Sequence record: MT446387.1
Source: Escherichia phage TH09
Length of the DNA stretch: 64,000 nt
Reading direction: 5' to 3' (one strand)
Shown here: one piece after another, positions 3,049-59,370 of the stretch
Position numbering within the stretch: position 1 is the stretch's first letter
How the letters are laid out: each line of letters opens with the position of its first letter
The notes under the pieces: generated by a model
What the model was told of the DNA's origin: nothing
The model's database searches: none
What the model saw: the letters and a program-made list of their open reading frames with translations, nothing else
Translations under genes and position numbers: made by a program

Positions 3049-3576
3049 ATGAACGCTAAAGATATTTTCAACCTGGTAAATTACAACGATGGTAAATTTA
3101 AATCAGAAGCACAAAGCAAGTTCTTTAATGACATCTCAATTGGAGGTGAAATCACTGTTGATGGAGGACAAATTTACAAATCCCGTTGGAATTGGATCGT
3201 TATTATTGACGAGATCGGTATTGTAGAAATTTACAAGAATACGAATAAAAATCGTACATTACACTGGTCTCGTGATACTAACGAACAGTACAAAAAGGAT
3301 AAAGCATCTAAATTATCTCGTGTAACTCAAGAAGATATTGAGTTCATCAAGAAAGATATTTTGATGTATGATAACTTAATTGCTGAAGAGCAAGCTGTTA
3401 TTGATAAATTTGACGAGATTAAAGCTTCTCGTGAAATTCCTGATTTTATGAAAGAATCAGTAAATGAACGATACAATCTCATTTCAGAGCGTATTGAAAC
3501 TTACAAAAAGCAAAGAGCTGAACGCCAGAACACTCTTCGGAAGTTTGAAGAACGGTTAAAGACGGTACTCGCATAA
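3049..3576 (+). CDS. hypothetical protein with C-terminal coiled coil
   Basis: Track ORF starts inside promoter; ACGGAGG SD places start at 3049; heptad-like C-terminus. Confidence 0.55.
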   Translation: MNAKDIFNLVNYNDGKFKSEAQSKFFNDISIGGEITVDGGQIYKSRWNWIVIIDEIGIVEIYKNTNKNRTLHWSRDTNEQYKKDKASKLSRVTQEDIEFIKKDILMYDNLIAEEQAVIDKFDEIKASREIPDFMKESVNERYNLISERIETYKKQRAERQNTLRKFEERLKTVLA

Positions 3577-14430: not shown

Positions 14431-14631
14431 ATGAATCCTGAATCTAAATTATCGCAACGAATTGCTGAAGCTCGTCGTCAGTTCTTTGAAAATATGATAG
14501 CCCAAGGTATTGATGACGAAGTTTTTCTAAACTGGTTTTGGAATCACAAATATTCAAAATGCTCAGGAGCAATATTAATATCAGCCGCAATGATGTACGA
14601 AGGCTGGAAGGGTGCCAAACAGTTTAGCTAA
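14431..14631 (+). CDS. hypothetical protein
   Basis: 66 aa ORF. Confidence 0.45.
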   Translation: MNPESKLSQRIAEARRQFFENMIAQGIDDEVFLNWFWNHKYSKCSGAILISAAMMYEGWKGAKQFS

Positions 14632-18445: not shown

Positions 18446-19465
18446 ATGAAAATTTTAAATTTAGGTGATTGGCATTTAGGCGTTAAAGCCGATGATGAGT
18501 GGGTTCAATCTATTCAGTTGGATGGAATTAAACAAGCAATAGAATATTCTAAGAAAAATGGAATTACTACATGGATTCAATACGGCGATATTTTTGATGT
18601 GCGAAAAGCAATCACACATAAAACTATGGAGTTCGCTCGTGAAATAGTTCAAATGCTTGATGATGCTGGTATTACCCTACATACTGTTGTAGGAAACCAT
18701 GATATGCACTTTAAAAATACTTTAACTCCAAATGCCTCTACTGAGCTTTTGGCTAAATATCCTAATGTTAAAGTATATGATAAGCCTACTACAGTAGATT
18801 TTGACGGGTGTTTGATTGATTTGATTCCTTGGATGTGCGAAGAAAATACTGGTGAAATTCTTGAACACATCAAAACTTCATCTGCTTCTTTTTGTGTTGG
18901 TCACTGGGAGCTGAATGGATTTTATTTTTATAAAGGAATGAAATCTCACGGTCTTGAACCTGATTTCCTTAAGACTTATAAAGAGGTGTGGTCTGGTCAC
19001 TTCCATACTATCTCTGAGGCTGCTAACGTCAGATATATTGGGACACCATGGACACTAACTGCAGGTGACGAGAATGACCCTCGTGGGTTCTGGATGTTTG
19101 ATACAGAAACAGAACGAATGGAATTTATTCCAAACAATACTACCTGGCACCGTAGAATTCATTATCCATTTAAAGGAAAAATTGACTATAAAGATTTTAC
19201 AAATCTATCAGTACGTGTTATAGTAACTGAAGTAGACAAAAATCTGACGAAGTTCGAATCTGAACTAGAAAAAGTTGTGCATTCATTACGAGTTGTGTCA
19301 AAGATTGATAACTCTGTCGAGTCAGATGACAGTGAAGAAGTTGAAGTTCAATCTCTTCAGACGTTGATGGAAGAATACATTAATGCAATTCCAGACATCA
19401 CTGATTCTGATCGTGAAGCACTTATTCAATATGCAAATCAGTTATATGTAGAGGCAACACAATGA
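18446..19465 (+). CDS. 47: recombination nuclease subunit gp47 (Mre11-like)
   Basis: 339 aa; GDWHLG and phosphoesterase histidines. Confidence 0.9.
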   Translation: MKILNLGDWHLGVKADDEWVQSIQLDGIKQAIEYSKKNGITTWIQYGDIFDVRKAITHKTMEFAREIVQMLDDAGITLHTVVGNHDMHFKNTLTPNASTELLAKYPNVKVYDKPTTVDFDGCLIDLIPWMCEENTGEILEHIKTSSASFCVGHWELNGFYFYKGMKSHGLEPDFLKTYKEVWSGHFHTISEAANVRYIGTPWTLTAGDENDPRGFWMFDTETERMEFIPNNTTWHRRIHYPFKGKIDYKDFTNLSVRVIVTEVDKNLTKFESELEKVVHSLRVVSKIDNSVESDDSEEVEVQSLQTLMEEYINAIPDITDSDREALIQYANQLYVEATQ

Positions 19466-34093: not shown

Positions 34094-34387
34094 ATGAAAA
34101 AATTTATTTTTGCTACAATTTTTACTTTGGCTTCTTGTGCTGCTCAGCCTGCTATGGCAGGATATGATAAAGATTTGTGTGAATGGTCTATGACTGCAGA
34201 TCAGACTGAAGTTGAAACTCAAATTGAAGCGGATATTATGAATATCGTTGAGCGCGATCGTCCTGAAATGAAAGCTGAAGTACAAAAACAGCTTAAGTCT
34301 GGTGGTGTAATGCAGTATAATTACGTTCTGTATTGTGATAAAAACTTCAATAATAAAAATATCGTAACCGAAATCACAGGCGAATAA
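34094..34387 (+). CDS. sp: spackle periplasmic protein
   Basis: 97 aa with signal peptide; size and position match T4 sp. Confidence 0.7.
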   Translation: MKKFIFATIFTLASCAAQPAMAGYDKDLCEWSMTADQTEVETQIEADIMNIVERDRPEMKAEVQKQLKSGGVMQYNYVLYCDKNFNNKNIVTEITGE

Positions 34388-34388
34388 T

Positions 34389-35021
34389 ATGATTTATTAT
34401 ATGCACAAAAATCCACCGTTTAAATACGGTAAATTTCCTGATGCACAATGTTATAATATAACGCCTGATGAAAATAACCGTGGATATCTTATTGGCACAA
34501 TTTTTGTAATTGTTAAAGATAACGAAATCGTTGCCTGGGCAGATTTTAAAGGTACAACATATGATGTTAATCCGGTGCCTTTCACATATTACAATTTAAT
34601 GGATTTGGCATACGATTATAATTGGTTTAATCATGACACTTTGGCTCATATTGAAGGTGTAGGATTTGATATTTCATATTCGGAATACACTTTAAGCCCT
34701 ATGAGTCGAGCCCATAAAGAACCTGAATATTTTTCATTTAGGAAACGTGTAAACTTTAAACGCAGCACAGAGTATGTCGGTGGAATATTTGTTAAAGATA
34801 ATCGAATTACTCGCATTATTTATCCTTTGGGCTGTGGTCAAAAAGATATTGATGTTAATTTAGACTTTACTGAAAACATCATTAATCATATTGCTTCTGT
34901 GTATTTTGGTATCGATCACAAAATTGTAATATGTGGATATGAATTACCGTTTGAAGAACAGCCTAAAGTAAAAGTTTCTATTGACGATCAAATTTTTAAT
35001 GCTTTTATGAATAAAGGTTAA
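34389..35021 (+). CDS. hypothetical protein
   Basis: 210 aa; C-terminal SIDDQIFNAFMNKG shared with next ORF. Confidence 0.55.
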   Translation: MIYYMHKNPPFKYGKFPDAQCYNITPDENNRGYLIGTIFVIVKDNEIVAWADFKGTTYDVNPVPFTYYNLMDLAYDYNWFNHDTLAHIEGVGFDISYSEYTLSPMSRAHKEPEYFSFRKRVNFKRSTEYVGGIFVKDNRITRIIYPLGCGQKDIDVNLDFTENIINHIASVYFGIDHKIVICGYELPFEEQPKVKVSIDDQIFNAFMNKG

Positions 35022-35025
35022 TATG
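34977..35025 (+). repeat. 49-bp direct repeat, copy A
   Basis: 46/49 identical to 35335-35383; covers last 14 codons, stop, SD and next ATG. Confidence 0.8.
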
Positions 35026-35379
35026 TATAGTTCTGAATTTTCATATTTAAAAATGGAAAAAATTTCATACGATTTTATAGATGAAAAGGTTTATTACAGT
35101 TTCCATGAACCGCGTTTTAATAGTGAGGTTGGGTTTATTGTAGTAAAAGACAATTTCATTTTAAAGATATATTCGGCATTAAAGGATTTTCACTATGAAA
35201 ATATTAACCTAAAATTTGATAAAGAAAACGTTCGTAATTGTGCAGTAACAATTACAGGAAATAAAGGTACGTGTGTTATGCTATCTGATGAAATTAATGA
35301 TTTGCTAAATGATGCAGAAAATATTACTGCGCCATCTATTGATGACCAAATTTTTAATGCTTTTATGAATAGAGGTTAA
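35023..35379 (+). CDS. hypothetical protein
   Basis: 118 aa; C-terminal SIDDQIFNAFMNRG. Confidence 0.55.
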   Translation: MYSSEFSYLKMEKISYDFIDEKVYYSFHEPRFNSEVGFIVVKDNFILKIYSALKDFHYENINLKFDKENVRNCAVTITGNKGTCVMLSDEINDLLNDAENITAPSIDDQIFNAFMNRG

Positions 35380-35383
35380 TATG
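35335..35383 (+). repeat. 49-bp direct repeat, copy B
   Basis: See copy A. Confidence 0.8.
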
Positions 35384-35545
35384 AAAACATATAAAGAATT
35401 TATCAAAGAAGATATGGTCGCTGGAGATTCAGGTGGTAGTCCTGAAAATATCTCTACTGGAACAACGTCAGGCGCTGTAGTAAATAAAGGTCCTGAACAG
35501 ATTCCTAAAAAGAAAAAAGAGGAATCTAAAGAAAAAGAAGAGTAA
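35381..35545 (+). CDS. small protein with capsid-targeting-like N-terminus
   Basis: 54-codon ORF below track cutoff; N-terminus MKTYKEFIKE resembles the T4 internal-protein targeting sequence; lysine-rich acidic tail. Confidence 0.4.
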   Translation: MKTYKEFIKEDMVAGDSGGSPENISTGTTSGAVVNKGPEQIPKKKKEESKEKEE

Positions 35546-35547
35546 AA

Positions 35548-36576
35548 ATGTCATCAATACCTTGGATTGATAATGAGTTTGCATACCGTGCATTAGCTCA
35601 TTTACCTAAATTCACACAAGTAAATAATAGTTCAACTTTTAAATTACGGTTTAGATGTCCTGTTTGTGGAGATTCAAAAACCGACCAGAATAAAGCTCGT
35701 GGATGGTATTATGGTGATAATAATGAAGGAAATATTCATTGTTATAACTGTAACTATCATGCACCAATCGGAATATATTTAAAGGAGTTTGAACCTGATT
35801 TATATCGTGAGTATATCTTTGAAATAAGAAAAGAAAAAGGTAAAAGTCGTCCAGTAGAAAAACCTAAAGAACTTCCTAAACAACCCGAAAAGAAAATAAT
35901 TAAATCTCTTCCGTCATGTGTTAGATTAGATAAACTGGCGGAAGACCATCCAATTATAAAATATGTAAAAGCTCGTTGTATTCCAAAGGATAAATGGAAA
36001 TATCTTTGGTTTACAACTGAATGGCCTAAATTAGTTAATAGCATAGCACCAGGAACATACAAAAAGGAAATTTCTGAGCCTCGTCTTGTTATTCCAATTT
36101 ATAATGCTAATGGAAAAGCTGAGTCTTTTCAAGGACGTGCATTAAAGAAAGATGCTCCTCAAAAATATATCACCATTAAAGCTTATCCTGAGGCAACAAA
36201 AATTTACGGTGTTGAACGAGTTAAAGATGGTGATGTATATGTTCTAGAAGGACCTATAGATTCACTTTTTATTGAAAATGGTATAGCTATTACGGGTGGT
36301 CAATTAGACCTAGAAGTTGTTCCATTTAAAGATAGACGAGTGTGGGTTTTAGATAATGAACCTCGTCACCCTGACACTATCAAACGAATGACTAAATTAG
36401 TTGATGCAGGAGAAAGGGTTATGTTTTGGGATAAATCTCCCTGGAAATCAAAAGATGTCAATGATATGATTAGAAAGGAAGGTGCAACCCCTGAACAAAT
36501 TATGAAATATATGAAAAATAATATTGCCCAGGGGTTGATGGCTAAAATGCGGCTATCTAAATATGCTAAGATTTAA
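35548..36576 (+). CDS. 61: DNA primase gp61
   Basis: 342 aa; zinc ribbon CPVCGDS...CYNC; recognised as T4 gp61. Confidence 0.95.
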   Translation: MSSIPWIDNEFAYRALAHLPKFTQVNNSSTFKLRFRCPVCGDSKTDQNKARGWYYGDNNEGNIHCYNCNYHAPIGIYLKEFEPDLYREYIFEIRKEKGKSRPVEKPKELPKQPEKKIIKSLPSCVRLDKLAEDHPIIKYVKARCIPKDKWKYLWFTTEWPKLVNSIAPGTYKKEISEPRLVIPIYNANGKAESFQGRALKKDAPQKYITIKAYPEATKIYGVERVKDGDVYVLEGPIDSLFIENGIAITGGQLDLEVVPFKDRRVWVLDNEPRHPDTIKRMTKLVDAGERVMFWDKSPWKSKDVNDMIRKEGATPEQIMKYMKNNIAQGLMAKMRLSKYAKI

Positions 36577-57681: not shown

Positions 57682-59370
57682 ATGCAACTGAATAATCGCG
57701 ATTTAAAAAGTATCATTGATAATGAAGCATTGGCTTATGCTATGTACACGGTTGAAAATCGTGCTATTCCAAATATGATTGATGGATTTAAGCCAGTTCA
57801 ACGATTTGTTATTGCTCGAGCTCTTGATTTGGCACGAGGAAATAAAGATAAGTTTCACAAACTCGCTTCTATCGCAGGTGGTGTAGCGGACCTTGGATAT
57901 CATCATGGCGAAAACTCTGCACAAGACGCAGGTGCTTTGATGGCTAACACTTGGAATAATAACTTTCCTCTGTTAGATGGTCAAGGAAACTTCGGTTCTC
58001 GTACCGTTCAAAAAGCAGCGGCAAGTCGTTATATTTTTGCTCGTGTAAGTAAAAATTTCTATAACGTATATAAAGATACTGAGTATGCTCCGGTACATCA
58101 AGATAAAGAACACATTCCGCCTGCTTTCTATTTGCCTATTATTCCTACTGTTCTTCTTAATGGCGTTTCCGGTATTGCAACTGGTTATGCAACTTACATT
58201 CTTCCTCATAGCGTTTCTTCTGTCAAGAAAGCTGTATTACAAGCTCTTCAAGGAAAGAAAGTAACTAAACCGAAGGTAGAATTCCCAGAATTTCGTGGTG
58301 AAGTCGTTGAAATTGATGGGCAATATGAAATTCGTGGAACATATAAGTTTACTTCACGAACTCAAATGCATATCACTGAGATTCCGTATAAGTATGATCG
58401 TGAAACTTATGTGAGTAAAATCTTAGACCCACTTGAAGATAAAGGCTTCATTATACATCAAGATAAAGAACACATTCCGCCTGCCTTCTATTTGCCTATT
58501 ATTCCTACTGTTCTTCTTAATGGCGTTTCCGGTATTGCAACTGGTTATGCAACTTACATTCTTCCTCATAGCGTTTCTTCTGTCAAGAAAGCTGTATTAC
58601 AAGCTCTTCAAGGAAAGAAAGTAACTAAACCGAAGGTAGAATTCCCAGAATTTCGTGGTGAAGTCGTTGAAATTGATGGGCAATATGAAATTCGTGGAAC
58701 ATATAAGTTTACTTCACGAACTCAAATGCATATCACTGAGATTCCGTATAAGTATGATCGTGAAACTTATGTGAGTAAAATCTTAGACCCACTTGAAGAT
58801 AAAGGCTTCATTACATGGGATGATGCTTGTGGTGAGCACGGCTTCGGCTTTAAAGTTAAATTCCGTAAAGAATATTCTTTGAGCGATAATGAAGAAGAAC
58901 GCCATGCAAAAATTATGAAAGACTTCGGGTTGATTGAGCGTCGTTCTCAGAATATTACCGTCATTAATGAGAAAGGAAAACTACAAGTTTACGATAACGT
59001 AGTTGATTTAATTAAAGACTTCGTTGAAGTTCGTAAAACTTATGTCCAAAAGCGAATTGATAACAAAATCAAAGAAACTGAATCAGCATTTCGTTTAGCC
59101 TTTGCCAAGGCACATTTCATTAAGAAAGTGATTTCAGGTGAAATTGTTGTACAAGGTAAAACTCGCAAAGAACTGACTGAAGAACTTTCTAAAATTGATA
59201 TGTATTCTTCTTATGTTGATAAACTAGTTGGAATGAACATTTTTCATATGACTTCCGACGAAGCAAAGAAACTTGCTGAAGAAGCTAAAGCTAAAAAAGA
59301 AGAAAACGAATATTGGAAAACTACTGATGTAGTTACAGAATACACTAAAGATTTAGAGGAAATCAAATGA
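57682..59370 (+). CDS. 52: topoisomerase II medium subunit gp52 carrying an internal 120-aa tandem duplication
   Basis: 562 aa versus about 442 aa expected; residues HQDKEH...EDKGFI occur twice. Confidence 0.9.
   Translation: MQLNNRDLKSIIDNEALAYAMYTVENRAIPNMIDGFKPVQRFVIARALDLARGNKDKFHKLASIAGGVADLGYHHGENSAQDAGALMANTWNNNFPLLDGQGNFGSRTVQKAAASRYIFARVSKNFYNVYKDTEYAPVHQDKEHIPPAFYLPIIPTVLLNGVSGIATGYATYILPHSVSSVKKAVLQALQGKKVTKPKVEFPEFRGEVVEIDGQYEIRGTYKFTSRTQMHITEIPYKYDRETYVSKILDPLEDKGFIIHQDKEHIPPAFYLPIIPTVLLNGVSGIATGYATYILPHSVSSVKKAVLQALQGKKVTKPKVEFPEFRGEVVEIDGQYEIRGTYKFTSRTQMHITEIPYKYDRETYVSKILDPLEDKGFITWDDACGEHGFGFKVKFRKEYSLSDNEEERHAKIMKDFGLIERRSQNITVINEKGKLQVYDNVVDLIKDFVEVRKTYVQKRIDNKIKETESAFRLAFAKAHFIKKVISGEIVVQGKTRKELTEELSKIDMYSSYVDKLVGMNIFHMTSDEAKKLAEEAKAKKEENEYWKTTDVVTEYTKDLEEIK
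58094..58453 (+). repeat. 360-bp tandem repeat unit 1 inside gene 52
   Basis: 359/360 identical to unit 2. Confidence 0.95.
58454..58813 (+). repeat. 360-bp tandem repeat unit 2 inside gene 52
   Basis: Single difference 58485 C versus 58125 T, synonymous. Confidence 0.95.

Follow-up and report, generated by a model that had tools for sequence, protein, structure and literature searches.

The 49-bp direct repeat at the 3' ends of adfA and its tandem paralog ORF118 in Escherichia phage TH09

The adfA-ORF118 locus and its repeat

The DNA analysed, a stretch of 64,000 nucleotides from Escherichia phage TH09 (MT446387.1) that is referred to here as the window, comes from a Tequatrovirus, and its repeat-carrying interval is 99.9% identical to phage JLBYU22. 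The gene order at the locus is gp41 helicase, dmd, 61.4, spackle, ORF210, ORF118, 61.1 and gp61 primase. Spackle (sp, 34094-34387, plus strand; Pfam PF25676) is the conserved left neighbour of the slot that AdfA-family genes occupy. In TH09 this slot holds two genes on the same strand, ORF210 (34389-35021), which is adfA, also named gp61.2 or anti-DarT factor A, and ORF118 (35023-35379), which belongs to the RB32ORF033c / phrog_4122 family. They are followed, again on the plus strand, by gene 61.1 (35381-35545, 54 aa), whose ATG lies upstream of the start site of the promoter P61, and by the gene 61 DNA primase (35548-36576), which is the gene served by P61.

As originally predicted, a 49-nt direct repeat connects the ends of the two adjacent plus-strand ORFs (210 and 118 aa), with copies at 34977-35025 and 35335-35383 that differ by three mismatches (46/49 identical) and are spaced 358 nt apart. 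Both copies read on the plus strand and cover the final 14 codons of one gene, its stop codon TAA, a single T and the ATG of the following gene, these genes being adfA and ORF118 for copy 1, and ORF118 and 61.1 for copy 2. The protein ends are shared as predicted, ORF210 ending in SIDDQIFNAFMNKG and ORF118 in SIDDQIFNAFMNRG, each before the TAA-T-ATG of the next ORF, and we refer to this stretch as the tail. At all 3 variant sites, copy 2 is identical to the single tail of T4. The repeat is not a product of chance, as 100 dinucleotide-preserving shuffles of the window gave 0 matches at three or fewer mismatches, against 2 observed. Confinement to the TH09 genome, which had been named among the outcomes speaking against the prediction, does not apply, since the 49-mer was found at 742 places in 559 phage records. 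A tail-bearing gene was located directly 3' of spackle at every locus for which the neighbours were examined.

Among the 20 direct-repeat families listed for the window, the 49-nt repeat is the sole one located at coding ends, and the multi-copy families are mostly T4 early-promoter or terminator-hairpin families. The early-promoter repeats (59-87 nt, GTTTACA...GGTACTATACAACTATCAA) are found at window positions 1244, 2973, 13745, 27768, 55304, 56029 and 59526, and the hairpin terminators (GGGCTTCGGCCC) at 14630, 18263, 22973, 24920, 49200 and 54710. Elsewhere in the window, a segment of 360 nt (120 codons) is duplicated in tandem, in frame and with 100% identity, at 58094-58753 in ORF 57682-59370, which encodes a topoisomerase II medium subunit (gp52-like; 562 aa). 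In the 8 best-matching phage records the gp52-like query collapses onto 691 nt in two pieces, thus none of these 8 records has the 360-nt duplication, which either arose very recently or is an artefact of the assembly.

ORF210 matches the Pfam AdfA profile PF23813 with an E value of 2.4e-137 and 455.6 bits (cut-off 27) over residues 1-210 of 211 profile positions, and this full-length match above the curated cut-off makes it a member of the AdfA family. It is 76% identical to T4 gp61.2, and its AlphaFold2 (AF2) model (pLDDT 70) consists of two modules of approximately 100 aa, each a beta-sheet with a helix, and the C-terminal tail. ORF118, in contrast, matches the C-terminal half of the same profile (positions 113-211) with 31.9 bits, which is also above the gathering score of 27, and its homology to AdfA does not rest on the tail alone. 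It matches phrog_4122 with an E value of 2e-72, and by BLASTP the whole of ORF118 aligns to AdfA residues 98-210 (E 2e-9). When the tail-less bodies were compared by hhalign, an E value of 3e-4 and 32% identity over 63 columns were obtained, with a probability of only 39%, which is low because the alignments are shallow. In the AF2 model of ORF118 (pLDDT 83, body above 90) the order of strands and helices is the same as in AdfA, and the depositors of phage RB51 annotated the ORF118 counterpart as 'similar to gp61.2'. ORF118 and adfA are therefore diverged tandem paralogs that share the tail, ORF118 being a fast-evolving protein with one module instead of two and a body that is only about 31% identical to that of AdfA. 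This paralogy was absent from the original prediction. An exhaustive HMMER search of 1.8e9 protein representatives returned 10 cluster representatives, and the family is phage-only.

AdfA binds and neutralises DarT1 (PMC11257639), and the protein has been described in two papers from the LeRoux lab (PMC11257639, PMC11825919). In RB69 AdfA, residue 164, which is either His or Arg, is decisive (PMC11257639). In our alignment the AdfA segment NIINHIAS, which is presumed to hold residue 164, stands opposite ENVRNCAV in ORF118, with Asn facing His. The TH09 adfA gene has a mosaic structure: over residues 1-65 its product shares 97% identity with the AdfA of Mosigvirus APCEc01 and only 47% with that of T4, and over residues 131-210 the values are 72% for Mosigvirus and 91% for T4, implying an exchange of the N-terminal module between genera. 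Other parts of the locus vary as well. The interval between gene 41 and spackle contains a goF-like gene and small ORFs in some phages (positions 578-1079 of the ime09 locus, 14-256 of the P8 locus and 169-417 of the SP18 locus), and the DUF7279 (61.4) homolog, upstream of spackle in Tequatrovirus, lies downstream of the ORF118 ortholog in SP18. As a whole, the interval between genes 41 and 61 behaves like a hyperplastic region. In phage FL12, the frame of ORF118 (1247-1602 of the FL12 locus) is broken by the loss of 1 nt from an A6 run at codon 12, only a short CDS being annotated there, and this is either a pseudogene or a homopolymer sequencing error.

Promoter, start signals and peptide encoded by the tail

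In T4, gene 61 is preceded by P61, a MotA-dependent middle promoter with a start at 19122 (Hinton 2010, PMC2988021 Table 1, tabulating Marshall, Sharma & Hinton 1999). The T4 61.2 stop codon occupies 19134-19132 and the ATG of 61.1 occupies 19130-19128. Positions -12 to -7 of P61 thus read TAATAT, formed by TAA, the single T and the first two letters of the 61.1 ATG, and positions -35 to -26 read TTAATGCTTT, so both elements are located within the tail, with the MotA box in the codons for F-N-A-F. The coordinate convention was checked on T4 P56/69, Pdam and P61, and TATAAT was recovered for the controls P56/69 and Pdam. This mapped promoter content of the repeat was absent from the original prediction.

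Copy 2 of the TH09 repeat is identical to T4 from -35 to +1. Here P61 spans 35355-35382 on the plus strand, with the MotA box TAATGCTTTT at 35355-35364, a spacer of 12 nt and the -10 element TAATAT at 35377-35382, and the predicted start is the A at 35389; the mapped T4 start at 19122 lies 7 nt past TAATAT in the identical sequence. P61 in TH09 would therefore be expected to transcribe the primase gene, as it does in T4. Copy 1 contains a putative promoter of the same type (34997-35024, plus strand), in which the MotA box (34997-35006), the 12-bp spacing and the -10 element (35019-35024) are shared with copy 2 and the spacer differs at one position. Its start is predicted at approximately 35031, within codon 3 of ORF118. 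Compared to T4, where the same MotA box, 12-bp spacer and TAATAT occupy the same place upstream of 61.1 and 61, TH09 thus has two copies, of which the extra one stands before ORF118 with one spacer change and another initiation region, and may be active as a promoter ahead of this gene. Measured against the consensus for the MotA box, (a/t)(a/t)(a/t)TGCTTtA centred at -30, with a TAnnnT -10 element 12 ± 1 bp downstream, TAATGCTTTT agrees at 9 of 10 positions in both copies, and both have a sigma-70 -10 element, TAATAT, after the 12-bp spacer. A pattern scan of the window (MotA box, 11-13 nt, TAnnnT) gave 25 hits on the sense strand, both tails included, versus 8 on the antisense strand and a Markov expectation of 6.0 ± 2.4. 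In phage Lutter, the annotation supplied by its depositors has a 27-nt promoter at each of the two tails; the T4 GenBank records contain no promoter features. In the Mosigvirus tail the core of the MotA box is broken (TGCATT) and the peptide is intact.

The tail also contains the start signals of the next gene. Junction 1 (35013-35025, plus strand) comprises a Shine-Dalgarno-like AAAGG, TAA, T and the ATG of ORF118, and junction 2 (35371-35383, plus strand) the Shine-Dalgarno sequence AGAGG, TAA, T and the ATG of 61.1; in both, the Shine-Dalgarno sequence is situated 5 nt upstream, in the tail codons for (K/R)-G. This is the layout of a translationally coupled gene pair, TAA-T-ATG with the Shine-Dalgarno sequence inside the upstream gene, and the two genes may be coupled with those that follow them. 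The suggestion that the tail mediates a coupled restart was correct insofar as the GGTTAATATG junction is of the stop, one nucleotide, ATG type, but it is not specific to adfA and ORF118, because 9 of the ORF junctions in the window have the same layout. The sequence RAGGNTAATATG occurs 4 times in the window, including at the dmd/61.4 junction and one other. The two tail junctions thus share their layout with the generic T4 coupling junctions (ATG one nucleotide after the stop codon, Shine-Dalgarno sequence within the final codons), and differ from them in the shared 36-nt peptide-coding stretch upstream, which is found only at these two. A metagenomic T4-like contig (L040, positions 3364-3390) has the tail end AGAGGCTAA twice in tandem (AGAGGCTAAAGAGGCTAATG) ahead of the start of the next gene, the duplicated unit being 9 nt and consisting of the Shine-Dalgarno sequence and the stop codon.

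At the protein level, the family ends in the motif (S/T)(I/V)DDQIFNAFM(N/K)(R/K)(G/D), of which DDQIFNAFM is invariant in Tequatrovirus and Mosigvirus AdfA, in ORF118/119/122, in a 146-aa JS98-type family that is not recognisable as a relative outside the tail, and in distant, single-module members of 120 and 125 aa. The proposal of a conserved C-terminal tag is borne out in this respect, as the peptide is invariant family-wide, even where synonymous sites differ. The latter vary between genera (GCT/GCC/GCA, TTT/TTC, CAA/CAG, AAT/AAC/AAG, AGA/CGA/AAA), which points to selection on the peptide as the deep cause of the conservation, and the tail is thus probably maintained by selection at the protein level. 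In FL12 the adfA tail ends in R-D (AGA GAT), not in K-G or R-G. In the AF2 models of both AdfA and ORF118, the tail forms a short low-confidence helix after a disordered linker with pLDDT below 50. This is the usual look of a docking motif, and the tail is most likely a candidate docking helix on a flexible linker. As a speculation, the acidic, hydrophobic C-terminal tail might be a sliding-clamp (gp45) binding motif.

It is highly improbable that the tail is instead a C-terminal degradation or localisation tag with merely incidental features at the DNA level. The invariance of the peptide across the family, and the flexible linker followed by a short helix at the extreme C-terminus, would fit such a tag, but no family or motif match to a degron or targeting signal was found, and the mapped P61 shows that the DNA has a real function. 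Since AdfA acts by binding DarT1 (PMC11257639), docking to a partner is at least as plausible as a degradation or localisation tag.

Why the two copies match

The peptide could by itself keep two DNA copies similar. Of the 12 degenerate codons in the TH09 repeat, 10 are identical, whereas 6.6 would be expected from the shared peptide and the codon usage of the window (P=0.034). Most of the repeat thus follows from the peptide and codon bias, and with such a marginal excess the TH09 window alone offers little evidence for gene conversion. The small excess can plausibly be attributed to the promoter and the translation-start signals. In this reading, constraints from the peptide, the AT-rich codon bias, the promoter and the translation start would be stacked on the same bases, and would together hold the copies at 46/49 identity.

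An alternative is concerted evolution, in which recurrent gene conversion between the tails, and not selection, is the main cause of their near-identity. In its favour, both Gaprivervirus tail genes share the lineage-specific codons AAG CGA (plus GCC TTC in SP18 and in locus L017), both Tequatrovirus tail genes share AAT A(A/G)A and GCT TTT, and the two tails of locus L050 differ at 1 base. However, the peptide is also invariant in distant phages that have one tail, and so no second copy to convert with, codon identity exceeds the expectation by little, and the two tails of phage EAWsc9 differ at 9 of 49 positions. In addition, the tails of paralogs within a Gaprivervirus genome are 82-94% identical, which is not clearly above the 80-88% found between genera. 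We consider concerted evolution rather unlikely as the main cause, and gene conversion is not required by the TH09 genome alone. The stacked constraints remain our preferred explanation for the similarity of the copies, and recombination enters with a different role, described below.

Gain and loss of ORF118 across relatives

The body of ORF118 was detected in 298 phage records, with adfA adjoining in about 157 of these. The counts per arrangement are approximate, as BLAST joins pieces across an inserted gene, and amount to about 157 records with both genes, about 141 with ORF118 only and a few hundred with adfA only. T4 has the arrangement sp-adfA-61.1 with one tail, the window has sp-adfA-ORF118-61.1, and T2 and ime09 have sp-ORF118-61.1, without adfA. 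The single tail of T4 is the expected product of an exchange between the two copies, or else it represents the state before insertion. A comparable variation was found in Gaprivervirus/JS98-like phages, in which the 146-aa tail gene is followed by an ORF118 ortholog at five loci (L012, L017, L018, L033, L046), and this ortholog is precisely absent behind the 146-aa gene at seven others (L013, L014, L020, L022, L023, L025, L026), the boundary of the gain or loss being at the tail in both states. The check for breakpoints across T4-like genomes that had been proposed thus gave a positive result, with gain/loss endpoints exactly at the repeat in both T4 and the Gaprivervirus/JS98-like phages. Four different downstream genes are joined to the tail at the same TAA-N-ATG.

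The variants of the tail itself were also informative. All four combinations of the variant sites were found. The P8 locus has a CT-G tail before 61.1, which is the chimera expected from a crossover between copy 1 and copy 2, and phage teqsoen and locus L050 have a TC-A tail before ORF118. ORF118 is accompanied by either allele type of adfA, of which at least the T4 type is found in phages lacking ORF118 as well. A search with a degenerate tail pattern gave 16 loci in IMG/VR and 12 in metagenomes, which is enough to compare haplotypes and too few for statistics. Homoplasy of third-position transitions could mimic recombinants, and the chimeric haplotypes are to be read with this caveat.

Not every rearrangement at the locus uses the repeat. 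At positions 1474-1491 of the T2 locus, and at the same position in ime09, the spackle stop codon is followed by TTAGAGGTTAGTATG, which corresponds to the last 14 nt of a tail (these 14 nt holding the Shine-Dalgarno sequence, a TAG instead of a TAA stop codon, and the ATG) before ORF118. It looks like either a scar left by the loss of adfA or ORF118's own translation-start region. In this T2-type loss the left endpoint is at the sp stop codon and only the last 14 nt of the tail (TAGAGGTTAGTATG) are kept, from which it follows that two full tails were not involved here.

Taken together, we propose that the repeat is the shared, multifunctional 3' end of tandem AdfA paralogs, and that recombination at the tails most likely moves the ORF118 cassette; we regard this combined explanation as probable. 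In this scheme, selection would maintain the tail peptide in a family that is restricted to T4-like phages, and in T-even phages the same DNA would serve as peptide codons, MotA box, -10 element and Shine-Dalgarno sequence. Homologous recombination between 49-bp tails 358 bp apart could then insert or delete the ORF118 cassette together with its own copy of the promoter, giving rise to the T4-type arrangement with adfA only and the window-type arrangement with adfA and ORF118. Recombination at the tails is likely because of the endpoints of ORF118 presence and absence, the parallel gain and loss in Gaprivervirus, and the chimeric haplotypes, all of which are patterns in sequence comparisons.

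There is a smaller, though appreciable, chance that the repeat is a mere by-product of paralogs that stand in tandem and keep their C-terminal motif, with no role in recombination. The nucleotide identity would then stem from the peptide, codon-bias, promoter and translation-start constraints, and the endpoints would coincide with gene boundaries only since rearrangements elsewhere kill the phage or have polar effects. Gain and loss at gene boundaries could indeed be due in part to selection for genes that are intact and coupled, and not to the mechanism of rearrangement. The marginal codon test, the generic nature of the junction, the T2-type deletion without a full tail, and the tail identities in Gaprivervirus, which are hardly higher within a genome than between genera, are all in line with a by-product. 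However, the precise gain and loss recurs in two genera with different upstream and downstream genes, chimeric tails occur in all four variant-site combinations, and recombination in T4 is efficient on homologies of approximately 50 bp, and these points argue for recombination at the tails.

The original prediction had considered the repeat as a recombination linker for cassette exchange. The endpoints at the repeat and the chimeric tails agree with this, but the data do not distinguish a dedicated linker from an incidental patch of homology. In its strictest form, the tail would be a dedicated, selected, att-like cassette boundary for the shuffling of anti-defence cassettes. The identical junction to four different downstream genes, and an ORF118 cassette that is present or absent in two genera, would be expected of such a boundary. 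Nevertheless, we consider it very unlikely, as there is no recombinase, no inverted repeat or other site-like architecture and no structure in the RNA or DNA, the conservation is fully accounted for by the roles in peptide, promoter and translation start, and the family is limited to one genomic slot.

A broader version of the proposed scheme would treat the approximately 45-bp tail as a portable dual-use module that combines a docking helix, a MotA promoter and the signals from which the following gene is started, and the slot behind spackle as a recombination-driven array of anti-DarT-like cassettes across the T-even genera. Since every family member ends in the tail, any member could then be gained or lost behind spackle through homologous recombination, with correct expression kept. 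This extension is tentative, and we think it rather doubtful in its full scope.

Relation to known systems and implications

The closest described mechanism is PeSL-mediated modular shuffling. Like a PeSL, the tail is a short repeated segment in which a promoter and a Shine-Dalgarno sequence connect the stop codon of one gene with the start codon of the following one, and it flanks small accessory genes that vary between close relatives. In contrast to a PeSL, the promoter in the TH09 tail is MotA-dependent (middle class), and the element flanks the variable ORF118 yet lies in coding sequence instead of an intergenic region. Neither tail gave a site in a sense-strand scan for sigma-70 early promoters (-35/-10) or any terminator-like site, and no conserved RNA structure was seen in them, with folding z-scores of +0.51 and -1.39. 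With no sigma-70 promoter, hairpin or terminator, the tail repeat can be ruled out as a PeSL; by analogy it appears to work like one, but it is not one.

P61, AdfA, generic coupling junctions and the similarity of RB32ORF033c to gp61.2 were already known. In the literature we found no description of the family-wide C-terminal motif or of its overlap with P61, and none of the duplication of P61 together with ORF118 or of the coincidence of the repeat with the endpoints of ORF118 gain and loss.

The findings provide an explanation for the strong conservation of the tail DNA, which has to serve as peptide-coding sequence, middle promoter and ribosome-binding junction at once. They also bear on studies of counter-defence against DarTG. 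T2 has been treated as 'naturally lacking an adfA homolog' (PMC11257639), and phages said to lack adfA, such as T2, carry the single-module paralog. Constructs in which adfA or ORF118 is deleted or engineered can lose P61, the promoter of the primase gene, or gain a second copy of it; in the published T4 adfA deletion (61.2 delta 65-196), the tail codons are left in place. Finally, the locus offers a concrete example, accessible to experiment, of accessory genes being gained and lost where short coding stretches are homologous, which would complement the intergenic, PeSL-mediated type of shuffling.
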